Origin: Candidatus Taylorbacteria bacterium RIFCSPLOWO2_01_FULL_48_100
Lineage (GTDB): Bacteria > Patescibacteriota > Minisyncoccia > Phycocordibacterales > UBA10002
Direction of reading: 5' to 3'
NCBI GenBank assembly: GCA_001821135.1
Contig: MHSA01000012.1
Span: 6,341-70,340, forward strand
Length of the DNA stretch: 64,000 bases
Made by a program: the position numbers and the translations under genes. How positions within the stretch are numbered: the first letter of the stretch is position 1; each line of letters begins with the position of its first letter. This document shows positions 5,971-48,683 of this stretch, in pieces. Under the pieces are notes generated by a model that saw nothing but the letters and a program-made list of their open reading frames with translations, was not told the origin of the DNA and searched no databases.

Positions 5971-6498
5971 ATGTTCTCCAACCCATCACAAATTATTTCT
6001 CAATTAGACCTGCAATCCAGCGCGCGGGTGGCGGATATTGGCGCGGGGAGCGGGGCGTATGCACTTGCGGCGGCGAAAGCGGTCGGGGAGCATGGCAAGG
6101 TTTTTGCGGTAGAAGTGCAAAAGGAGCTTTTGTCGCGCATAGAAAAAGAAGCACGCTCAAAAGGCATTCATAATATAGAAACAATGTGGGGGGATGCGGA
6201 GAGCGCGGGCGGAACGCATCTTGCGGACGGCGCGTGTAATGCGGTAATTATTGCAAATGTGCTTTTTCAAGCGTCCGATAAACAGGCGCTCGCGCGCGAA
6301 GCCGCGCGGATTCTGGAACCCCGTGGTCGCGCGCTTGTGGTGGATTGGTCGGGCTCGTTTGGCGGCGCGGGTCCTGCGCCCGCCGCCGTGGTTTCCAAGC
6401 AAAAAGCGCAAGAGATTTTTGAAAGCGCCGGGTTTGTATTGGAACGCGCTGTGGATGCGGGCGCAAACCACTATGGTATAATTTTTAGGAAAAAATAA
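5971..6498 (+). CDS. class I SAM-dependent methyltransferase
   Basis: Motif I (VADIGAGSGAYAL). GC-rich, unlike the preceding R-M pair. Start taken at the internal Met (MFSNPS). Confidence 0.65.
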   Translation: MFSNPSQIISQLDLQSSARVADIGAGSGAYALAAAKAVGEHGKVFAVEVQKELLSRIEKEARSKGIHNIETMWGDAESAGGTHLADGACNAVIIANVLFQASDKQALAREAARILEPRGRALVVDWSGSFGGAGPAPAAVVSKQKAQEIFESAGFVLERAVDAGANHYGIIFRKK

Positions 6499-6609
6499 TA
6501 CCAATCTGCGAATTATACCAATGATACAAATGTCTACGAATAAGAAATGAATTTTATTAGTAGTCATTAGTAGAATTGGTATGTATTAGTATATTGGTAT
6601 GTCCATCTT

Positions 6610-7872
6610 ATGCGTCCATTCCAAATAATACTTCTCGCCGTTTTTGTGATAGCCGCCATTGCGGGGCTGGTCGCCTTTTCGCTTTTTAAGGGCACGCCCC
6701 CCGCAGGGGGGCTTGCGGAACTTGAAGTATGGGGTTCATTTCCGTCATCCGCGTTTTCAAGTGCGACGGCGGACTTGTCTGGAGATGAGTTTAAAATTAC
6801 ATACAAAGAAATCTCCGCGGCTCGGTTTGAGCAAGAACTCATAGAGGCGCTCGCGGCTGGAAGAGGGCCAGATGCGATTATTTTGCCGTCAGAACTTGTA
6901 GTGCGGCATAGCGACAAAATCGTACTGATTCCATTGGAGACACTCTCGGAACGGCAATTTAAAGACGCTTTTGTGGAAGCGGAAGAGGCGTTTTGGACGC
7001 CAGCCGGCGCGCTCGCGATTTCGCTCGCCGTGGACCCTATTGTTATGTACTGGAATCGCGACCGGTTGAGTGCGGGAGGAGTCGCGCGGCCCCCTCGCTA
7101 TTGGGATGAGGTTCTTACGGCAGTTCCGAAGTTGACACTTCGCAATCGGCTCGGGCAAATCCAATCTGCAGGCATTTCTCTCGGCGAGTTTCGCAACATT
7201 ACGAATGCGAAAGAAATTATCTCCGCGCTCTTTTTCCAAAGCGGCGGCAAGCTCATTTCGCGCGCACCGGAAGGATACGCAGTATCGCTTGAGGATTGGG
7301 CGAATGCCGGAAGCGCACTCGGCTTTTTCACTGAGTTTGCAAATCCTGTGAAGTCGCTATACACATGGAATCGCGGTCTGCCACAATCACGCGACATGTT
7401 TGCATCTGGCGACCTTGCGCTGTATTTAGGCTTCGCGTCCGAATATGCGGGGCTTCGCGAAAAGAATCCGCATTTAAATATGTCCGTCGCGCCATTCCCG
7501 CAAACGCGCGATTCTAAACTCACGGTAACATTCGGCAAAGCGTGGGGGCTTGCCGCATTAAAGACGGGAAGAAATCCAGCTGGTGCGATGCGGCTTGGTT
7601 TCGCACTTGCGGATTCCACGCGAATAACAAGATTGGCGGAAGCGCTCGGCACGGTGCCGCCACTTCGCGCACTTCTGGAACGCAAAGCAGACAGTGCCGC
7701 GAAGTCGGTATTTTACGAGGCGGCTTTGCAGGCGCGTAGTTTCCTAGACCCAAACCCTACGGAAACGGCAAAATTATTCCAATCGGTTGTAGAAAATATC
7801 ACCGGCGGCAGAGGGCAGGTAGCGAGCGGGGTAGGCGACTTGCGGAGTGGATTAGAAAGATTACTAAAATAA
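6610..7872 (+). CDS. membrane-anchored extracellular solute-binding-protein-like protein
   Basis: N-terminal TM helix followed by a ~390 aa soluble domain. Weak resemblance to family-1 substrate-binding proteins. No permease genes adjacent. Confidence 0.4.
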   Translation: MRPFQIILLAVFVIAAIAGLVAFSLFKGTPPAGGLAELEVWGSFPSSAFSSATADLSGDEFKITYKEISAARFEQELIEALAAGRGPDAIILPSELVVRHSDKIVLIPLETLSERQFKDAFVEAEEAFWTPAGALAISLAVDPIVMYWNRDRLSAGGVARPPRYWDEVLTAVPKLTLRNRLGQIQSAGISLGEFRNITNAKEIISALFFQSGGKLISRAPEGYAVSLEDWANAGSALGFFTEFANPVKSLYTWNRGLPQSRDMFASGDLALYLGFASEYAGLREKNPHLNMSVAPFPQTRDSKLTVTFGKAWGLAALKTGRNPAGAMRLGFALADSTRITRLAEALGTVPPLRALLERKADSAAKSVFYEAALQARSFLDPNPTETAKLFQSVVENITGGRGQVASGVGDLRSGLERLLK

Positions 7873-7874
7873 AT

Positions 7875-8315
7875 ATGGAGCAAAACACATTTTCAAAATG
7901 TCTGGAGCGAATGGTCGCATTGCAGCGACCCGAGCGTTACCGAGGACTTTTGCAAAATGTGTTTTGCGGAATGTTTATATATGTTGTTCTTGTTGCGCCA
8001 CTTTTTGCTCACGCCGCTCCGATTGTCCCGTGCGGAAACCCAGGTCAAGAGCCGTGCGGCTTCAATCACTTCCTCATCGGCATCAACAATGTAATTAACT
8101 TTTTGATTATGATTGGCGGCTCCATCGCCGCGATTGTGTTTGCATGGGCGGGAATTCTGATTTTGACTGCCGGCGCGAACGAAAGTCAAGTAACTAAAGC
8201 AAAAGGAATGTTCTGGGCAGTGCTAAAGGGTTTCGCGCTGATGCTCGCCGCGTGGATTTTGGTGAAAATGGTGCTGGTTGGGCTTGGGGTTCCGGATGCG
8301 TTCTCATTGCTTTGA
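7875..8315 (+). CDS. VirB2/TrbC-like pilin family small membrane protein (paralog 1 of 6)
   Basis: Signal-like hydrophobic segment, then the shared core (LTAGANESQVTKAKG...) and a second TM helix. This architecture is shared by all six paralogs. Confidence 0.55.
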   Translation: MEQNTFSKCLERMVALQRPERYRGLLQNVFCGMFIYVVLVAPLFAHAAPIVPCGNPGQEPCGFNHFLIGINNVINFLIMIGGSIAAIVFAWAGILILTAGANESQVTKAKGMFWAVLKGFALMLAAWILVKMVLVGLGVPDAFSLL

Positions 8316-8319
8316 TAGT

Positions 8320-8742
8320 ATGGAGAAAGAGACACCAGATGTTGATAGGCGGCAAACATCTAGTGTCTTGGTGTGGTACAATAACACTCATATGCAAAAA
8401 GTGTTTTGGGTAATAATTGGATTTTTGCTTTCCGCAGGGCAAACATACGCACTGCATACTGGCGGTGGTTTGCCGCATCTTGATAACCCGCTTGGACCTA
8501 CTACCAATACATTTGAAGCGCTTGCGGCGAAAATACTTGTGATTGTTTCCGATATAGGCGGCGTGGTGGCGGTATTCTTTATTATTTACGCAGGGTTTTT
8601 GTTTGTAACTGCTGGCGGAAACGAAGATAAGCATAAGAGCGCGAAAAAGGCGATTTTGTATGCAGTCATCGGCACCGCAATCCTCCTCGGTGCGCAAGCA
8701 CTCGCAAAGATTTTAGAGGCAACGATAAACTCGTTGAAATAA
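8320..8742 (+). CDS. VirB2/TrbC-like pilin family small membrane protein (paralog 2)
   Basis: Shared core VTAGGNEDKHKSAKKAILYAVIGTAILLG. Start codon uncertain (8278, 8320 or 8392). Confidence 0.55.
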   Translation: MEKETPDVDRRQTSSVLVWYNNTHMQKVFWVIIGFLLSAGQTYALHTGGGLPHLDNPLGPTTNTFEALAAKILVIVSDIGGVVAVFFIIYAGFLFVTAGGNEDKHKSAKKAILYAVIGTAILLGAQALAKILEATINSLK

Positions 8743-8745
8743 TAT

Positions 8746-9066
8746 ATGAAAAAAATATACGCAACATTCTTAATACTCTCACCGCTTTCTGTTTTTGCCG
8801 CGCCAGCCGATTTCAAGGGACTGGTTAATTTGGCGCTGGACAACATCAATGTTGCGCTTTTTGCGCTCCTAATTCTCGCGTGGTTTGTTGTATTTGCGAA
8901 AATAGCCGGTTATATAGGGGCGGGTGTGGGAGGAGATGAAAAAAAGATGAGTGCTTTCAAACAAACGGCACTTTTTGGTGTTCTTGGTATTGCGGCATTA
9001 TTAGTGTATTGGGGCGCGGCAAAAATTATTTGTTTAAGTTTGCTTGGCCCAGGCAATTGCAATTAA
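8746..9066 (+). CDS. VirB2/TrbC-like pilin family small membrane protein (paralog 3)
   Basis: Signal peptide MKKIYATFLILSPLSVFAAP. Core IGAGVGGDEKKMSAF plus second TM. Confidence 0.55.
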   Translation: MKKIYATFLILSPLSVFAAPADFKGLVNLALDNINVALFALLILAWFVVFAKIAGYIGAGVGGDEKKMSAFKQTALFGVLGIAALLVYWGAAKIICLSLLGPGNCN

Positions 9067-12868: not shown

Positions 12869-12911
12869 GCCGACACCGAATGTTTGAAGCCCATCAACAT
12901 TCGGTGTCGGC
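12869..12911. repeat. conserved-loop hairpin family Y, copy 1 (16 bp stem, loop tgaagcccatc)
   Basis: gccgacaccgaatgtt-tgaagcccatc-aacattcggtgtcggc followed by a T-run. The same loop sequence recurs at 25301, 44201 and 47908. Confidence 0.6.
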
Positions 12912-23441: not shown

Positions 23442-23632
23442 CTCGGAATGCTGCTTTTGCGGAACCGGAAAATTTCCCCTGCGAGGAAATTTTCCTTATC
23501 CGCTCGCCTCGCTCTTCCTCGCAGATTCGGAATCCATGCCCGCTCGGCTCCTCGCCCGCCCGTACCGAAACGGTACATTTCGGGCGGGCCGTTCCGCAAC
23601 CTGTCTGCCGACAGGCAGAAAGCACATTGCTT
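23442..23632. repeat. TIR-bounded structured element, copy 1 (long form with two extra nested hairpins)
   Basis: Shares ~110 nt at near identity with 43881-44015. Outer 20 bp stem ggaatgctgcttttgcggaac/gttccgcaa..agcacattgc. Begins 3 nt after the serS stop. Confidence 0.7.
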
Positions 23633-25300: not shown

Positions 25301-25336
25301 TAGACACACGATGTTGATGTGCTTCAAACATCTGGT
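25301..25336. repeat. hairpin family Y, copy 2 (reverse orientation)
   Basis: cacgatgttgatgtgcttcaaacatctggtg; reverse complement of the Y consensus. Confidence 0.55.
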
Positions 25337-25387
25337 GCCCCTGCAATTTATCATTAAGCCACGATCGTATCTTAATAATAAAACTAA

Positions 25388-38460: not shown

Positions 38461-39438
38461 ATGAACCCAGAAAGTTTTCAGAACAATGCGGTGTTTTGGA
38501 TTGAGACGGACAAAATAAAGCCGAACCCGTTTCAGCCGCGCCGCGAGTTTGACCCCGAGAAACTCCGCGACCTATCCGAGTCAATCCGCGCGTACGGCGT
38601 GCTTCAGCCGCTCGTCGTAACACGCAAGGAGGTGGTGAAAGATGACGGGGGTATTGTTGTTGAATACGAATTGCTTGCGGGCGAGCGGCGCCTCCGCGCC
38701 TCAAAACTTGTCGGATTACCACATGTGCCGGCGCTTATCCGCGCGGGCGAAAACAGCGACCGCGAAAAGCTTGAAATATCCATTATAGAAAACCTCCAGC
38801 GCGAGGACTTGAACGCCGTAGAACGCGCGCGCGCGTTCAAGCGGCTTGCCGACGATTTCGGTTTTAAGCATCACGAGATAGGCACGCGAGTTGGTAAGAG
38901 CCGCGTGTATGTTACGAATACGATGCGGATTCTAGATTTACCAAATGAAATTCTTGACGCGGTTTCAAGCGGTATTATAAACGAAGGACACACCCGTCCG
39001 CTTTTAATGCTCGTAGATCGTCCAGAAGAGCAGACGGTTCTTTTTAAAGAAATCTCGGTGAAGAAGATTACTGTGCGCGAGGCGGAAGAGATTGCGCGGA
39101 AAATTGCCGTTGACCGTGCGCGGAAGAAAGATGTCACTGTTGACCCGGAGCTCGTGGCGATTGAAGGCAAGCTCCGCGAGTCGCTCGGAACGCGTGTGCA
39201 TATTGAAAAGCGCGAAAATGGCGGGAAGATTCTCATTGATTTCTTTTCAACTGATGACTTGCTCGCGATTCTAGCGATGCTGGAATCAAAGGAGAAACGG
39301 AGTCCCTCCGAAATGATTGACCGCCATCTTGCAAAAATGAAAGCGGAAAAGCCGCCAGTCGCGCAAGAAAATACCGAAAAAGACGAACCACAAGAAGATG
39401 AAGAAGAACTCTACTCCGTCCGCAATTTTACCGTTTAG
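38461..39438 (+). CDS. parB: ParB/Spo0J chromosome partitioning protein
   Basis: ParB box (GERRLRA) and HTH region. No parA gene adjacent. Confidence 0.85.
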   Translation: MNPESFQNNAVFWIETDKIKPNPFQPRREFDPEKLRDLSESIRAYGVLQPLVVTRKEVVKDDGGIVVEYELLAGERRLRASKLVGLPHVPALIRAGENSDREKLEISIIENLQREDLNAVERARAFKRLADDFGFKHHEIGTRVGKSRVYVTNTMRILDLPNEILDAVSSGIINEGHTRPLLMLVDRPEEQTVLFKEISVKKITVREAEEIARKIAVDRARKKDVTVDPELVAIEGKLRESLGTRVHIEKRENGGKILIDFFSTDDLLAILAMLESKEKRSPSEMIDRHLAKMKAEKPPVAQENTEKDEPQEDEEELYSVRNFTV

Positions 39439-39520
39439 TTTTTGCGATATAGACAGATTATATATATTATGCTAGGCTAATTATAGAAAAAACAAATCTT
39501 AAAATAAAGAGAGGTTAAGA

Positions 39521-39901
39521 ATGACTGTATTAGATTTGGCGAAACTACTCTTGGAAAAGCAAGGATGGACACATCAGAGATTATCGAAAGAGTGTGGCAC
39601 TAGCAGACAGAATATACAAAGATTAATTTCTGGAAAGCCGCGCAAAAAGAAAGGATTTTATTTGGGTGTTCTAAGTGCCGCGTTTCGTTATGGGCTTGAA
39701 GCTGAGGCGATACATGTGATTGTTGGTTCCACTAAAGCGTTGCCAAGTATTCTTCGCGCAGTAATTATGTATCCGGATATCACCCAAGAAGAACTCGCGG
39801 AAATTCGCGAAGCGGAGAAAATCACGCACATGTATTCATTGCCGATCGAAGTGATTAGTTCAATTGTTACAGCAAACCGTTTGAAGAAAAATAAAAAATG
39901 A
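39521..39901 (+). CDS. XRE-family HTH DNA-binding protein
   Basis: HTH (QRLSKECGTSRQNIQRLISG). AT-rich. Confidence 0.55.
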   Translation: MTVLDLAKLLLEKQGWTHQRLSKECGTSRQNIQRLISGKPRKKKGFYLGVLSAAFRYGLEAEAIHVIVGSTKALPSILRAVIMYPDITQEELAEIREAEKITHMYSLPIEVISSIVTANRLKKNKK

Positions 39902-40002
39902 TTTTTCAGAAACACACCGACGACCAGCAATGGCCGGCGGTTTTCTTTTATAAAGTTATAAACATGTATAGTTTTGTTCTGTTGCACAAGTAGTGCTATT
40001 CT

Positions 40003-40839
40003 TTGTGCATGGGTAGGATAAGAATAATTTTACAGAAAGATGTTCTAGAAAAGATGTATGTAAAAAAGAACCTAACGCCTGTTGAAATTGGGAGGCGATT
40101 GAAATGCAGTTTTAAGACGGTCCGCAATCGCCTAAAAGAATTCGGCATTCCTTTTAAAAATCCCGCATTAGCTCGAATGCGGTATCAAAAGTTTGATTGT
40201 ACACACGATCCATTTATTCGCTCGTACATGCTTGGATTTCGGCTCGGTGATTTGAATGTATATAAAAGGGGAGAACATTCGGAGACAATAGTCGTGCGTT
40301 GTCACACCACCCACAAAGCTCAAGTGTTGGTCATTCAATCATTATTTAATCCATTTGGCCGCGTTTCGGTAACACCTCGAGAAGAGCATTTTACAGTAAA
40401 TTGTTTTCTTAATCGGAGTTTTGAGTTTCTTCTTCCTAAAAACGAGCGGGTTTGGCAGTGGATAAAAGACGGTGATTCTGTTGCGCAGAGTTTCATTGCG
40501 GGTTATGTTGATGCTGAAGCCAATTTTATTATCAATCAAGGGCGTGCTCGTTTTAAAATTGATTCCTATGACTACGCAATATTAGAGTGGATATGTTCTT
40601 GGCTTTATAAGAAAAGCATTTCTTATAGTTACAGGTGCATTCGCAAGAAAGGACCATCGTGGAGAAATCAACCTCCTTTAAACGGAGATTTATGGCGGTT
40701 GAATATCAACGAAGCAGGTTCACTGGAAAGATTTATAAAAGAGATTTTTCCTTTTTTACGCCATGCGCATCGGATTAGGGATGTAAAAAAATGTATCACC
40801 AATATCAAATTAAGAAGAAAAAATGGCTCAATTAAATAA
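40003..40839 (+). CDS. LAGLIDADG homing endonuclease (double-motif) with N-terminal HTH
   Basis: Two LAGLIDADG-type motifs (SYMLGFRLGDLNV and SFIAGYVDAEANF). AT-rich. Overlaps the lepA start by 17 nt. Confidence 0.65.
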   Translation: MCMGRIRIILQKDVLEKMYVKKNLTPVEIGRRLKCSFKTVRNRLKEFGIPFKNPALARMRYQKFDCTHDPFIRSYMLGFRLGDLNVYKRGEHSETIVVRCHTTHKAQVLVIQSLFNPFGRVSVTPREEHFTVNCFLNRSFEFLLPKNERVWQWIKDGDSVAQSFIAGYVDAEANFIINQGRARFKIDSYDYAILEWICSWLYKKSISYSYRCIRKKGPSWRNQPPLNGDLWRLNINEAGSLERFIKEIFPFLRHAHRIRDVKKCITNIKLRRKNGSIK

Positions 40840-43874: not shown

Positions 43875-43880
43875 AAGACG

Positions 43881-44015
43881 CTCGGAATGCTGCTTTTGCA
43901 GAACCGGAAGATTTCCCCTGCGAGGAAATCTTCCTTATCCGCTCGCCTCGCTCTTCCTCGCAGACTCGGAATCCATGCCCGCTCGGCTCCTCGCCGTTCC
44001 GCAAAAGCACATTCC
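43881..44015. repeat. TIR-bounded structured element, copy 2 (short form)
   Basis: Near-identical to 23442-23556 plus the shared 3' arm. Outer stem ggaatgctgcttttgcagaac/gttccgcaaaagcacattcc. Confidence 0.7.
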
Positions 44016-44096
44016 TCACTCTCGTTATTTATTTCAACACTATTCCAATTAAACGCTATAGCAAGTAACTGGAATAGTTTACTCAATTCAACATAC

Positions 44097-44140
44097 ACTA
44101 TCTCTAGCAATCGCCAAAGATAGTGTATCCAATCATTTTG
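44097..44140. repeat. hairpin family X, copy 2
   Basis: tacactatctctagcaatcgccaaagatagtgta + attttgc. Confidence 0.5.
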
Positions 44141-44200
44141 CCTGCCCGCCGACGAGGAGGGCAAAATGTCTGTATATCCCGACATCCTCTTTGGCACCAG

Positions 44201-44232
44201 ATGTTGATGGTTTCAAACATCTGGTGCGTCTC
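44201..44232. repeat. hairpin family Y, copy 3
   Basis: caccagatgttgatggtttcaaacatctggtg. Confidence 0.5.
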
Positions 44233-44270
44233 GGGACATAGTTTATATTTTGTGATAACATATATTTAGA

Positions 44271-44566
44271 GCCGAGGTAGCTCAGTTGGTAGAGCGTCCG
44301 CCTGAAATCTTCGGGCCTTTCCGCCGCAAGGCGGATAGAAAAGCGGGTGAAATCGGGGAACATCCAATGACAAACAATCGGACAATCCCGAGCCAAGCTC
44401 GCCGAATAGGCGAGAAGGTGTAGAGACTATTCCTTTGGGAAGTACCCTCTTTTTAACAAAAGATGGGGAAGCGCCCGCCCCCTACTCCATCAAAGATGGA
44501 CGGGTGATGATATAGTCCAAATTATGGAAGAGCGGTAGGTCGGCAGTTCGATTCTGCCCCTCGGCA
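44271..44566 (+). tRNA. tRNA-Phe(GAA) interrupted by a group I intron in the anticodon loop
   Basis: 5' exon 44271-44303 (acceptor gccgagg, D-arm tagctcagttggtagagc, anticodon-stem 5' strand tccgc, loop cu|). 3' exon 44527-44566 (gaaga, anticodon-stem 3' strand gcggt, variable loop, T-arm ggcag-ttcgatt-ctgcc, acceptor cctcggc-a). Confidence 0.7.
44304..44526 (+). other. group I intron (~223 nt) within tRNA-Phe
   Basis: Contains group I core-like elements: P-like aaaagcgggtgaaa, Q-like aatcccgagc, R-like tagagactat, S-like gatatagtcc. The last 5' exon base is U, the intron ends in G, and an internal guide GGGC can pair with the exon end GCCU. Confidence 0.6.
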
Positions 44567-44600
44567 TTTGTAAAATTAGGAATTTTTTATAAAAACCACT

Positions 44601-44789
44601 ATGGCAAAAATTAACTGGGGTCAGGCGTCGGTTGACGGGCTAAATAAGACGGTGTTGGAGGAAAAGAAGAGATTGGAGTTGGAGCAAGAAAAAAGAAAAT
44701 TACATCTCTCGGCATCAAAATCTGATATTGAAACAGTCAGAAAAGTAATGAACGCGCTCGGTGTTAGTGTGGATGATTTGGTGAAGTAA
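44601..44789 (+). CDS. small hypothetical protein (coiled-coil, possibly DNA-binding)
   Basis: 62 aa, AT-rich. First gene of a tightly packed three-gene island. Confidence 0.4.
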   Translation: MAKINWGQASVDGLNKTVLEEKKRLELEQEKRKLHLSASKSDIETVRKVMNALGVSVDDLVK

Positions 44790-44793
44790 AAAT

Positions 44794-45339
44794 ATGCTTA
44801 ACAAAATTGATTTTGAAAATATAGTTCGGGATTTCTTATTTACATATAGGAAATTTCTATTCTACGCTTATTTGCACAAAAGGGTAAATCACGACGCATA
44901 CGAAGCAAACAGGATAACTTGGGATACCTTGCTTATTAGCTTAGAATCAGATGCATTACTTGGATTAGCAAAAATACTTTATGACAGGGAAAAAAGCTTG
45001 GGAAGGCCATTCAACGACGGCTCGGGAAAAACATTTAATAACGAAGAATTTAATAACGAAGAATTAAATGAGATTCGCAAAAAAATACTAAACCTGAGAC
45101 ATGATTACCTAGCTCACCAAAATTTATCGAAGATGCGTAATATGGATTCACTTTTGAAGGAAAACCGCTTGACAGGTACAGATGGCGTGAAAATGATCGA
45201 TGCGCTTAAAAGTAGGTTCATTCAATATGAAAAAAATCTTAAGCTCGATGTCAATGTGCAAAAACTATTTACCGAAAGCCAAAATAATGCGCTTAACGAC
45301 CTTGATAGTTGGTTGAAATCTTTTAAGACAGCGCTGTAA
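44794..45339 (+). CDS. hypothetical protein with HEPN-like R-x5-H motif (Abi-like candidate)
   Basis: LRHDYLAH fits the Rx4-6H HEPN signature. 181 aa, AT-rich. Confidence 0.4.
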   Translation: MLNKIDFENIVRDFLFTYRKFLFYAYLHKRVNHDAYEANRITWDTLLISLESDALLGLAKILYDREKSLGRPFNDGSGKTFNNEEFNNEELNEIRKKILNLRHDYLAHQNLSKMRNMDSLLKENRLTGTDGVKMIDALKSRFIQYEKNLKLDVNVQKLFTESQNNALNDLDSWLKSFKTAL

Positions 45340-45365
45340 GTAGAGACAATTTTAGAAATAGATTT

Positions 45366-47819
45366 ATGGCGAAAAAAATATCCAAATCTGGAAATAACTT
45401 TCTAACTGAGCGCGAGGGTCAGATTAAATTTTTCGACGATTTCAAGATAAGTGTCGATGTCGAACTTACTCATAATACCGATGGTGTATATAAGGGTACA
45501 TTATTCGAGTTCAAACTCACCGTATCAGACATTAACAAAGCACTTTTTCAAGCCATAAAATATCTCAGTCACAGACGAATTAGAGGTGAACCAGTGCCAG
45601 CGCAGATCTTACTCGTAGCACTCAACGAAGAGAATGCATATTTATTTGATTCTGGCGATTTCCTTACAGAGATTGAAAAGGTTTATGCTGGTGCTGCTAG
45701 TAAAAATAATGCTGATTTTAGCACTAAGATTAAACCGGAAAAAATTGATTACGGTGAGGCATTTGGCCTGCAACATATCAAAAAAATCCTAAACAAAGAA
45801 CACTTCACTAAAATAAATATTGATGTTTTTGATGTTGTCGGTTGGGCAAATCGATTTTACCGAGAAAACCCATCTGCTAGTAAAATCGAACTTTTCAAGG
45901 AGCTGCGTGCACCAAAACATTTTGCAACTTACATTTATCCATGGACAGGCGATGAAAAAGATTTCAAGTACATCATGGACCTTCTCAATGACACGCAACA
46001 CAAAAAAGAACTCGGTGCCTTTTATACACCACCAGCGTATTGTCGCAAAGCCACGGAATTAGTCCGAAAAGCTATTAGGCAAATACCGGTTGGCCACGAT
46101 TACATTATTCTTGATCGATGCGCCGGTACGGGCAATTTGGAAGAATTCTTAACCGATAAAGCGGTAAAAGATATAACTATCGGTGAGTTAAGCCGCTACA
46201 TCGATAACACTCTTAAAATAAAATATCTGCAGGACAAGGCTGATATTATTGCAATATTTTATAACAAGCGAAATTTTAACGAAATCACCGTTGGAGAATT
46301 GGAGAATCACAAAACCGGTCTCTCACTTTACGATTATATTTTTGACGATGAGCTATCTCATACCATCGTCAATACCTACGAGTTAAAAGAATGGATAGTG
46401 TTGAACTGGCGCATAGGAAATCGTGTCAAGCTCATAATTCCACCGCCACAGGAGATTGATAATACTGAATCGTTAGTCGATGGTGGCGATGCACTAAGTG
46501 TGCAATTTGTTACTGGCCAGAAGTCTATCGGTATGACGGATGAATATAATGATAGCATCGATATGCTTTCGGAGTGTGTCAAAAACAAAAAGACAAACAT
46601 TATTTTATATGAAAATCCGCCCTATCGAGATACGACATCTAATACGCATTTAGCAAGTTCTGGGAAAGGCGCGAATTTTGTTAAGGATGAAATGGCATCT
46701 GAAAAGAGGTGGGGTGCTACGCAAAACGATATTGCCAACCAATTTATTTGGTCAGGATGGAAGCATTATCTCACAAAGCCAGATGATTATTTTGTACTTT
46801 TCAGCCCCATAAAGTATTGGAAATCACTTGGTCTTGGTGAAAAGAAATTCATTGACGGCTTTTTGTTTAACCGCCAATTTTTTCATGCTGGTCCTAGTGC
46901 TATCAGTTGTATTTTATGGAACAATACTAACGACAGTCGTGAGTCGTTAACACTTAAAGCTTTTGATATAGACACGAATAACACACCAGAACAAGAAGAC
47001 GACACAATCGTTTATTTCAAAGATATAACAGTCAACAAAGTACATGAATCGTTGAAGCCATATTTTGATAAACGAAGATTTGATGACGATGTCGATATCT
47101 CCGTTGTTGTCGAACTATCTGGTCTTGAATCGTCTAAAAAGATTACAAAAAAACCAATCTACAACAAAAATATAGTCGGCCATATAAGAATCACAAGCTT
47201 CAATCTTGATCCGATAAGCATGTCATTGACTACAGTGGTAACACATAACGGTCTAACGAAGACAATTGGTTTTTATTTGCGTTCTGACAATTTTATTGAA
47301 AAATTACCTCTATTTGCAGCCAAACTGTATCCGCAAAAAAATTGGTATGAGCGCGACACATACTTTACTACAGCCGATGGTGGTGACCGTTATCTAAAAG
47401 ACAAAGATTTTTTGAAAGCATGTTTTATATTTGCTTGTATTAGTCAGCGCAACCATTGTCGGAGCTTCGATGGTAGCGATGGTCGATTTTACAAGAACGA
47501 GCTTTGTTTTGATAAAGGCACGGTGGCAAGTAGCAAACTAAAAAGCTACAAATTTACTAATCAGGAACTGGATTTGATAGATACTTTTACAGATGTGCTT
47601 ACAAAAGCAAAATCTACTAAAGAGTACAACTCAAAGTACACATATGGAACATATCAAATCGACGAAGAACTTAACACTCGCTATAAAAATGATAACGATG
47701 AATGGATCTACGATTATCCGGAACTCAACACGGCGATTAACAGTTTAAAGACGAAATTAGCTAAGTATTATGAGATCGCTATTCAGCCAAAGCTGTTTGA
47801 ATATGAACTACTAAAATAG
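45366..47819 (+). CDS. fused PD-(D/E)xK nuclease / gamma-class N6-adenine DNA methyltransferase / specificity protein (Type IIG/IIL MmeI-like R-M enzyme, or a BREX PglX-like enzyme)
   Basis: N-terminus D...EFK (VDVELTHNTDGVYKGTLFEFK). Methyltransferase motif X (GAFYTPPAY), motif I (ILDRCAGTGNL) and motif IV (ILYENPPYRD). Long C-terminal region. AT-rich. Confidence 0.55.
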   Translation: MAKKISKSGNNFLTEREGQIKFFDDFKISVDVELTHNTDGVYKGTLFEFKLTVSDINKALFQAIKYLSHRRIRGEPVPAQILLVALNEENAYLFDSGDFLTEIEKVYAGAASKNNADFSTKIKPEKIDYGEAFGLQHIKKILNKEHFTKINIDVFDVVGWANRFYRENPSASKIELFKELRAPKHFATYIYPWTGDEKDFKYIMDLLNDTQHKKELGAFYTPPAYCRKATELVRKAIRQIPVGHDYIILDRCAGTGNLEEFLTDKAVKDITIGELSRYIDNTLKIKYLQDKADIIAIFYNKRNFNEITVGELENHKTGLSLYDYIFDDELSHTIVNTYELKEWIVLNWRIGNRVKLIIPPPQEIDNTESLVDGGDALSVQFVTGQKSIGMTDEYNDSIDMLSECVKNKKTNIILYENPPYRDTTSNTHLASSGKGANFVKDEMASEKRWGATQNDIANQFIWSGWKHYLTKPDDYFVLFSPIKYWKSLGLGEKKFIDGFLFNRQFFHAGPSAISCILWNNTNDSRESLTLKAFDIDTNNTPEQEDDTIVYFKDITVNKVHESLKPYFDKRRFDDDVDISVVVELSGLESSKKITKKPIYNKNIVGHIRITSFNLDPISMSLTTVVTHNGLTKTIGFYLRSDNFIEKLPLFAAKLYPQKNWYERDTYFTTADGGDRYLKDKDFLKACFIFACISQRNHCRSFDGSDGRFYKNELCFDKGTVASSKLKSYKFTNQELDLIDTFTDVLTKAKSTKEYNSKYTYGTYQIDEELNTRYKNDNDEWIYDYPELNTAINSLKTKLAKYYEIAIQPKLFEYELLK

Positions 47820-47907
47820 TATAGAAAATCCCACTCTCTTTCAGAAAGTTATCAGATGTTATGCAAAACCCACAATCGGGCAAAAGGTAATCGTTAAAAA
47901 ATTATAA

Positions 47908-47948
47908 CACACACCCGATGTTTGAAGCCCATCAACATCGGGTGTTGT
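47908..47948. repeat. hairpin family Y, copy 4
   Basis: cacccgatgtt-tgaagcccatc-aacatcgggtg; loop sequence identical to copy 1. Confidence 0.55.
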
Positions 47949-47977
47949 GGAATGGATGAATTGCCTAGTTTGATTTC

Positions 47978-48042
47978 ACCTTCAGTTTTGTCTGCCTGTC
48001 CTTGTCTATTTTCGGGAGCTTGATGATGAGGTCATGTTTTTT
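47978..48042. repeat. duplicated fragment of the hsp20 3' end (last ~20 codons plus stop)
   Basis: The reverse complement encodes IIKLPKIDKDRQTKLKVKSN*, matching the hsp20 C-terminus at 48164-48230. The nucleotide repeat is tgtctattttcgggagctt(g/t)atgatgagg. Confidence 0.6.
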
Positions 48043-48163
48043 GTTATCCACATAAAGGGCTTGCGCGATAATCTATCTTGTGTATAATAGTGCTATTAAC
48101 ACCACTGCCCCTGCTCGCAAGAGCAAGGGCAGTTTTGTATATTCGTTTGCGAAAAGATACAAA

Positions 48164-48637
48164 CTAATTACTCCTGACTTTCAGCTTCGTCTGGCGGTCT
48201 TTGTCTATTTTCGGGAGCTTTATGATGAGGAGGCCGTGCTTTTCGGAGGCCTCTGACGCTTCAACATCTATTTCTTGCGGAAGAAGCACTGTGCGCGAGA
48301 ATGAACCCCAGTAGAGCTCTTTGTGGAAAAAGTCCTCGTTTTCAACTTCGTGTGATTCCTCGCGCTTGCCTTTGATGGTTACCATATCGCGCGTAATAGA
48401 CAAATCTAAATCATCCGGCCGCACGCCTGCGACCATTGTTTTTATAATCAAATCATCAGGTGTCTGATACACATCCACGGCAAGCTCGCCATCCTCGCTT
48501 TCGGAGATGAGTTCTTCCGGCACCTCGCTTTTTAATTCTTTTCCATTCTTGCGCGGCACAAGTTTGCGCACGGGCTCCTTCTCTTCTTCAGGAACTGCGC
48601 CCGTGAGCCGTTCAAAAAATGAGCGTTTACGAATCAT
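48164..48637 (-). CDS. Hsp20/alpha-crystallin family small heat shock protein
   Basis: Alpha-crystallin domain (FHKELYWGSFSRTVLLP...IIKLPK). Confidence 0.85.
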   Translation of the reverse strand: MIRKRSFFERLTGAVPEEEKEPVRKLVPRKNGKELKSEVPEELISESEDGELAVDVYQTPDDLIIKTMVAGVRPDDLDLSITRDMVTIKGKREESHEVENEDFFHKELYWGSFSRTVLLPQEIDVEASEASEKHGLLIIKLPKIDKDRQTKLKVRSN

Positions 48638-48683
48638 GGTTGAAAGTATTGTAACATAGACAGTCAAGCGAGTAATCCACAGG

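Follow-up and report, generated by a model that had tools for sequence, protein, structure and literature searches.

The stretch of DNA analysed here, referred to throughout as the window, comprises 64,000 nucleotides (nt) of contig MHSA01000012.1 from Candidatus Taylorbacteria bacterium RIFCSPLOWO2_01_FULL_48_100, a tiny groundwater member of the Patescibacteria, and the subject of the analysis is an AT-rich island at positions 44567-47964, which lies between the 3' end of a tRNA-Phe gene and the stop codon of a relic of the heat-shock gene hsp20. The island carries three open reading frames (ORFs), called p62, p181 and p817 after the length of their products in amino acids (aa). It is a lineage-specific insertion into the very short spacer between the convergent tRNA-Phe and hsp20 genes, and it is probably a small, mosaic, horizontally acquired defence islet made up of a restriction-modification (R-M) enzyme resembling Types IIG and IIL (p817) and an AbiU2-type HEPN protein (p181). 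The features of the locus are as follows.

44271-44566, + strand: tRNA-Phe(GAA) gene with a group I intron, the native left landmark of the insertion
~44307-44529, ~220 nt: group I intron in the anticodon loop of tRNA-Phe (Rfam RF00028)
44567-47964: the island, an AT-rich lineage-specific insertion that reaches from the 3' end of tRNA-Phe to the stop codon of the hsp20 relic
44601-44789, + strand: p62, ORF of 62 aa
44794-45339, + strand: p181, ORF of 181 aa
45366-47819, + strand: p817, ORF of 817 aa
45366-45989, + strand: predicted PD-(D/E)xK nuclease domain of p817 (residues 1-208), with D39, E48-x-K50 and Q62-xxx-Y66
45990-46925, + strand: predicted gamma-class N6-adenine methyltransferase domain of p817 (residues ~209-520), with motifs X, I and IV
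46986-47285, + strand: candidate target-recognition region of p817 (residues ~541-640), its most variable, beta-rich segment
47912-47944, - strand: hairpin resembling repetitive extragenic palindromic (REP) elements, in a terminator-like position 20 nt after the relic hsp20 stop
47965-48031, - strand: hsp20 3'-end relic, 21 codons plus a stop at 47965-47967, encoding LIIKLPKIDKDRQTKLKVKSN*
48032-48176, 145 nt: unique stretch between two repeat copies, with a GC-rich hairpin at ~48107-48134 and then a T-run on the + strand
48164-48667, - strand: intact hsp20 (Pfam HSP20, E 1e-15)

The three ORFs are all on the + strand and are separated by only 4 nt (p62 to p181) and 26 nt (p181 to p817). The GC fraction of the island is 0.368 as against 0.485 in the remainder of the window, making it the lowest-GC 3.4-kb stretch of the 64 kb (mean 0.477, standard deviation 0.03). 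An earlier reading of the window made from the sequence alone (the sequence-only reading) had described three tightly spaced AT-rich genes beside an intron-containing tRNA-Phe, a description borne out by the ORFs, the base composition and the Rfam result. The group I intron scored 58.6 bits with RF00028 at 44294-44532 (gathering score 50), and both flanking exons (44271-44306 and 44527-44566) agree at 92-95% with the tRNA-Phe of relatives that have no intron there (L100, L122 and others); ARAGORN made no tRNA-Phe call at 44271-44566. Because all relatives scanned, including the three closest, carry an intron-less tRNA-Phe in the same position, the intron appears to be a separate recent gain at the same locus.

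To place the island in its syntenic context, loci of relatives were gathered by a ValRS scan, which yielded 80 species-level genomes, and an hsp20 scan, which yielded 80 metagenome contigs, giving ~160 Paceibacteria loci. The core order ValRS-PrsW-hsp20-tRNA-Phe-p105-(tRNA-Arg)-Grx-(tRNA-Gly)-LepA is kept in almost all of these loci, and p62, p181 and p817 occupy the hsp20/tRNA-Phe slot in none of them. The absence of the island from related genomes, anticipated by the sequence-only reading, is thus observed, and no sign was found across this set that the same three genes belong to a conserved core arrangement. In the three closest relatives, L011 (whose ValRS is 83% identical to that of the window), L100 and L101, tRNA-Phe begins 13, 7 and 7 nt past the hsp20 stop, respectively, and since the interval is only 7-13 nt in these genomes, 44567-47964 is an insertion. 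A search of the metagenome scan for a closer strain with the empty site returned none above 78% hsp20 identity. The traits of a genomic island are all present, i.e. absence from related genomes, atypical composition and accessory cargo. In more distant relatives the same slot holds genes for membrane, GlmS-like, UDG-like and peptidase-like proteins, as judged from translations read by eye. The possibility that the slot is a recurrent defence hotspot was dropped because these genes, read by eye without profile scans, look ordinary, and the slot is variable rather than a dedicated hotspot for defence.

For the product of p817, the sequence-only reading had proposed a PD-(D/E)xK nuclease fused to a gamma-class N6-adenine methyltransferase in an architecture like that of MmeI or BpuSI, and this proposal held up on both structure matches and conserved motifs. 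The motifs that it quoted are all in place, namely D39...E48-F-K50, G217-AFYTP, D250-RCAGTGNL and N417-PPY in p817, and R102-x5-H108 in p181. Across an alignment of homologues at 27-63% identity, conservation is complete or reaches 90% or more for D39, E48, K50, Q62, Y66, GAFYTP, DRCAGxG and NPP. The methyltransferase motifs lie at residues 217-222 (motif X, GAFYTP), 250-258 (motif I, DRCAGTGNL) and 417-420 (motif IV, NPPY), and they follow one another as X, I, IV, as in gamma-class enzymes; a subgroup of the family that includes p817 carries a specific insert of ~60 aa between motifs I and IV (~265-325). The AlphaFold model of p817 (predicted local distance difference test score, pLDDT, 72.5) has the Type IIG enzyme BpuSI (PDB 3s1s) as its top Foldseek match in PDB, at E 1e-6 over 630 columns, followed by CamA, M.BseCI, PacII and BsaXI, with RlmJ also among the matches, and structurally the N-terminus is best matched by nuclease domains from Type IIG, Type IIL and Type I enzymes. 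Among close homologues (65-84% identity) variability is concentrated in residues 421-460 and 541-640, with column conservation of 0.51-0.64 in the latter segment as against 0.8-0.93 in most other 20-residue blocks. Residues 541-640 are beta-rich in predicted secondary structure, no known target-recognition domain came up as a fold match to them, and they are a candidate specificity region. Taken from the models and motifs, p817 would be a single-chain R-M enzyme of Type IIG/IIL architecture that lies, by sequence, outside all profiled families, with DNA cleavage, DNA methylation and a role in defence as its predicted activities.

The family to which p817 belongs is large, comprising more than 3400 proteins at E 1e-3, which fall into 554 clusters at 50% identity, and it ranges across many Patescibacteria, some viral contigs and plasmids of Limosilactobacillus. 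The best 120 homologues are full-length and 65-84% identical, and those that are named come from different groups of Patescibacteria and are all annotated as 'hypothetical'. A methyltransferase gene does not directly adjoin the family member in any of the window island, loci L001, L004, L091 and L092, or plasmid pAN417D. An AAA_15/21 ATPase follows the homologue in L001 and a PDDEXK_1 protein follows it in L091, while in L092 a Type III pair and an rve integrase are close to the homologue, and the methyltransferase 3 kb off belongs to the Type III pair. The Limosilactobacillus relatives, which are full-length, share 31-32% identity and are annotated as hypothetical, are found at 6557-9022 of the 9-kb mobilizable L. 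reuteri plasmid pAN417D (NZ_CP054661.1; L205; protein WP_003676765.1) and at 6248-8641 of an L. oris plasmid (L206), and one of these plasmid relatives adjoins an IS30 transposase. Relatives also occur on 20 contigs of IMG/VR, including viral contig L182, on which three DNA methyltransferase genes precede the homologue and DUF4238 and DUF3800 genes follow it; no p817 homologue was found in GenBank phages.

Individual members of the family showed further peculiarities. At 8001-10463 of L004, a contig of ENA ERZ15185023, a 70%-identical homologue sits between rpsJ (S10) and rplC (L3), accompanied by several small unknown genes and a PDDEXK_1 gene, with the L3-L4 genes beyond. Ordinarily, rpsJ and rplC are direct neighbours in the operon for ribosomal proteins. 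Two other homologues, P0133 (1112 aa) and P0227 (1030 aa), contain an insertion of ~340 aa exactly between DR and CAGTGNL of motif I, which starts with Cys, ends in ...GN or SN followed by Cys, and has LAGLIDADG-like motifs (weak PF14528 match, E 0.03-0.1). This insertion looks like an intein with a homing endonuclease placed in the motif that would bind S-adenosylmethionine (SAM).

The second gene, p181, has 54 relatives. Its R102-x5-H108 motif is invariant in 29 homologues, of which 26 match PF18734 (HEPN_AbiU2) at E up to 0.01 (best 1.9e-8), in agreement with the HEPN- or Abi-like character assigned to the protein by the sequence-only reading, and the gene probably encodes an AbiU2-type HEPN protein and predicted RNase toxin. 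Relatives of p181 adjoin an AlwI endonuclease and two D12 methyltransferases (L095), an Eco57I-type fusion enzyme (L098) and an N6_N4 methyltransferase (L204), the remaining contigs with relatives being too short or having unrelated neighbours. The position of p181 relatives beside R-M genes gives indirect support to p817 as an R-M enzyme. AbiU2-type HEPN genes have been recorded in R-M operons, with a PrrC-like 'second line' as the hypothesis for their role (PMC3710099). Within p181, positions 45033-45062 are a perfect 15-nt tandem duplication (two copies of ATTTAATAACGAAGA) that is translated as FNNEE-FNNEE and sits in a segment which is an indel-variable insert among homologues. The product of p62 has a charged, coiled-coil-like middle and a weak, sub-threshold match to H-NS_N (E 1e-4); a protein search returned only itself, a tblastn search of all fetched loci was empty, and p62 is best regarded as a small ORFan confined to this species.

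No other locus among those fetched carries p62, p181 and p817 together, and the nucleotide similarity of p181 and p817 to the loci of relatives ends within ~10 nt of each ORF. Because each gene has a distribution of its own, the island does not appear to be one element; its three genes are more plausibly independent mobile modules than a conserved operon. There is no integrase or transposase among the ORFs and called genes within ~10 kb on either side, no att-type repeats frame the island, and no fragment of tRNA-Phe or hsp20 is present at the left junction. The only long pair of direct repeats lies on one side of the island and brackets 145 nt.

This repeat pair derives from hsp20. The sequence-only reading had noticed a duplicate of the hsp20 3' end at 47978-48042, and the duplicate is real, although these coordinates were slightly offset and the relic occupies 47965-48031. 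The direct repeat itself is 54 nt long (47978-48031 and 48177-48230), its copies are 87% identical and 199 nt apart, and the second copy is the last 54 nt of the intact hsp20 ahead of the final codons. The relic peptide, LIIKLPKIDKDRQTKLKVKSN*, is identical to that of the L011 and L101 orthologues despite differences at 12-16 of 69 nt, while the intact gene ends in KVRSN* and shares 53 of 69 nt with the relic. By comparison, the hsp20 ends of L011 and L101 share 59 of 69 nt, and each copy in the window shares 57-58 of 69 with L011, the relic being 89.5% identical to L011 over 57 nt. A second hsp20 copy was found in none of the ~160 related loci. Since the relic peptide has been kept, the copies have diverged as orthologues of different species do and relatives have a single hsp20, the two ends appear to have been shaped by purifying selection in separate lineages, one of them being foreign to this genome, and the relic is probably what is left of another hsp20 3' end that once functioned. 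The relic and the intact end are about equally identical to relatives, such that identity alone does not choose the native copy, and sliding identity of hsp20 against L011, L100 and L101 gave no clear signal of a recombination breakpoint. The 145-nt stretch between the copies (48032-48176) is not hsp20-like, and nothing similar to it turned up in the rest of the window or in 206 loci.

At 48069-48140, in the gap that separates the stop of the intact hsp20 from the relic, there is also a promoter-like pair, TTGCGC-N-TATAAT, on the + strand. The consensus scan did not list this pair, after which come a GC-rich hairpin of 12 bp and then TTTTGT, and the segment may represent either a very small transcription unit or a terminator that works in both directions.

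A number of observations weigh against the reading of the island as a defence islet built around an R-M enzyme. No profile hidden Markov model (HMM) assigns p817 as a methyltransferase or a nuclease: profile scans gave no Pfam match at E up to 1 and no NCBIfam or PADLOC match, neither phmmer nor a family-profile hmmsearch returned anything usable from PDB sequences, and a marginal N6_Mtase match appeared in just 1 of 27 diverse relatives; in favour of the methyltransferase domain, PHROG 3820 ('DNA methyltransferase') matched residues 208-275 weakly (E 5e-4). The fold is taken from AlphaFold models of moderate confidence (pLDDT 72-76), for which the alignments were shallow (30 sequences, 60-84% identity), the protein is conserved along most of its length beyond what is typical of R-M enzymes with diversifying specificity, p181 itself scores 19.2 bits with PF18734 (gathering threshold 26.8), and the pairing of p181 with p817 is known only from this species. 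The sequence-only reading had taken a lack of nuclease and methyltransferase HMM matches as a reason to give up the assignment; such matches are indeed lacking, but because both domains retain support from structure prediction and from conserved motifs, a demand for an HMM match appears too strict. An alternative is that p817 is not a restriction enzyme but an orphan or regulatory N6-adenine methyltransferase, or an RNA methyltransferase like RlmJ, with a nuclease-fold N-domain that only binds nucleic acid, or else a methylase protecting a phage or plasmid. The presence of RlmJ among the Foldseek matches, the placing of the L182 homologue behind three DNA methyltransferase genes, an arrangement like that of phage anti-restriction clusters, and the unusual conservation along most of the protein all speak for such a role. 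However, conservation of the D...ExK triad and QxxxY at 90% or more would be unexpected in a degenerate domain, the N-terminus has Type IIG, Type IIL and Type I nuclease domains as its best matches, and the neighbourhoods are of a defence type (ATPases, PDDEXK proteins, a Type III system and the HEPN protein), such that a non-restriction role is considered unlikely. A BREX (bacteriophage exclusion) PglX, the alternative offered by the sequence-only reading, fits poorly with the presence of a nuclease domain and the lack of any recognised BREX partner among the neighbours in the window and five other family contexts, PglX being only one of many equally distant methyltransferase matches.

The manner of arrival of the island raises two further alternatives. 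One is that the three genes came in as a single integrative element through site-specific recombination, either at the 3' end of hsp20 or at tRNA-Phe, with the hsp20 duplicate as its attL/attR and its integrase lost later, in line with the att-site footprint that the sequence-only reading saw in the duplicate. Such an element would account for an island that adjoins a tRNA gene and is missing from relatives, and for a foreign or displaced hsp20 end, as when an element brings a replacement gene end. Nevertheless, both repeats lie on the right-hand side of the island and enclose just 48032-48176, the left junction has no hsp20 or tRNA-Phe copy, the neighbourhood has no integrase or transposase, and p181 and p817 are distributed separately with nucleotide similarity that stops at the ORF borders; the att-site proposal does not fit this geometry and is not supported, and an integrative element is judged very improbable. 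The other is that the relic stems from an old tandem duplication or replication slip within this lineage and has nothing to do with foreign DNA, a possibility that the sequence-only reading had itself raised and for which the direct orientation of the copies, 199 nt apart, is suggestive. A slip is hard to reconcile with copies that share 53 of 69 nt, a divergence as between species, each copy being closer to L011 than to the other, or with a relic that encodes the exact orthologous peptide; there is, moreover, no second hsp20 in the related loci, and the intervening 145 nt are not hsp20-like. This explanation is also held to be quite improbable.

Under the preferred reading of a mosaic defence islet, the PD-(D/E)xK nuclease of p817 (D39, E48, K50) would cut unmodified DNA, its SAM-dependent N6-adenine methyltransferase would mark host sites, and the variable, beta-rich segment at ~541-640 would set the sequence specificity. 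The p181 RNase would most likely act as an abortive-infection back-up of a kind often parked beside R-M systems, although a functional coupling of p181 with p817 is conjectural. The islet has neither an integrase nor flanking repeats, and the hsp20 relic would be either a donor flank or a displaced native end. These correspond to two possible routes. In the first, 44567-48031 would have been imported as the island together with a piece of the donor's hsp20, which implies a donor with the island in the same slot and a join that was anchored at tRNA-Phe and illegitimate on the right. In the second, the native parts would be the relic and, 20 nt past it, the REP-like hairpin, and a foreign 199-nt patch would have replaced the gene end. 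The analysis thus shows the insertion, the folds, the motifs, the distribution of the family and the geometry of the repeats, and it infers the cleavage and methylation of DNA, the role in defence, any coupling of p181 with p817 and the way in which the island was acquired.

Among the closest known systems is the Type IIL/MmeI family (MmeI, DrdV), with which p817 shares a single chain made up of a predicted N-terminal nuclease, a predicted central gamma-class N6-adenine methyltransferase and a candidate C-terminal specificity region, and a stand-alone gene with no companion methyltransferase directly beside it in the contexts examined. Unlike MmeI, p817 has no match to the Pfam MmeI_N, hel, Mtase, TRD or C domains or to PDB sequences, even by family profile, and it is shorter than MmeI and DrdV (817 aa as against ~920-1020 aa), carries NPPY and has the ~60-aa subgroup insert between motifs I and IV. 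BpuSI and Eco57I act alongside companion methyltransferases that are separate from them, and in contrast p817 has no methyltransferase gene directly beside it and no Eco57I, N6_Mtase or TaqI_C Pfam match. PglX has no nuclease domain and acts with PglZ, BrxC, BrxL and other partners, whereas p817 has a nuclease domain and no PglZ, BrxC or BrxL was recognised among its neighbours in the window and five other family contexts. The p181 protein resembles the AbiU2 HEPN RNases (PMC3710099) in its R-x4-6-H motif, its family-level HEPN_AbiU2 matches and the occurrence of its homologues beside R-M genes, but unlike PrrC of the PrrC-EcoprrI system it has no ABC or anticodon-nuclease N-domain, and the partner R-M system differs in every locus. 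Finally, the island is similar to the mobile R-M units linked to genome rearrangements (Furuta et al. 2010, PMC2853133), in that an R-M gene has been inserted as a unit into conserved synteny with a duplicated target-like sequence nearby, and differs from them in that the long direct repeats do not flank the R-M gene and are diverged (87%) rather than fresh.

Several short repeats and compositional features were also noted around the island. The REP-like hairpin at 47912-47944 belongs to a family (CACCNGATGTTGATGGNNTTCAAACATCNGGTG) of which the following copies were located.

12874-12906, - strand: REP-like hairpin
25305-25337, + strand: REP-like hairpin
44195-44229, + strand: REP-like hairpin
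47912-47944, - strand: REP-like hairpin, as listed above
L011, 7813-7833: REP-like hairpin in a relative
L012, 58-75: REP-like hairpin in a relative

The four copies in the window are intergenic, where none would be expected by chance in 64 kb, and the family, which has a conserved asymmetric loop and compensatory changes in the stem, is native to this lineage. The two inverted copies at 44195 and 47912 bracket tRNA-Phe and the island and were considered as transposon ends; this was rejected because the tRNA-Phe between them sits in its native syntenic place, and the hairpins form a genome-wide REP-like family that is also present in relatives. The p105-tRNA-Phe spacer (43875-44270) is ~400 nt long here as against ~30 nt in relatives and holds a string of hairpins (z = -7.8); within it, 43881-43995 is 96.5% identical to 23442-23556 of the window, pointing to a second short repeat family in the genome. 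A second low-GC stretch (0.37-0.40) at ~39200-40800, upstream of lepA, holds an HTH_3-like gene of 126 aa and a gene of 261 aa without Pfam matches, and may be another small acquired segment.

As a locus, the island mainly shows that an islet can lie beside a tRNA gene without being an element of the integrase type, and the islet is real but fairly ordinary, the novelty being an unprofiled family of enzymes rather than a new kind of system. A bolder and rather doubtful extension is that the p817 family is an unrecognised and very abundant lineage of single-chain R-M enzymes that moves as a bare, ORF-sized cassette into arbitrary sites, even into the S10-L3 operon, perhaps aided by its own nuclease, and that in this genome an AbiU2-type HEPN RNase has been coupled to it as a fail-safe in the manner of PrrC. 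Patescibacteria mostly lack CRISPR and are thought to be reliant on R-M systems (PMC12455944). As the p817 family is annotated as 'hypothetical' wherever it is named and is not seen by Pfam, NCBIfam or PADLOC, censuses of defence in Patescibacteria would under-count such systems. The homologues on Limosilactobacillus plasmids are carried by cultured strains, which makes the predicted activity and the recognition site directly testable, and a family with new specificity could serve as an enzyme.

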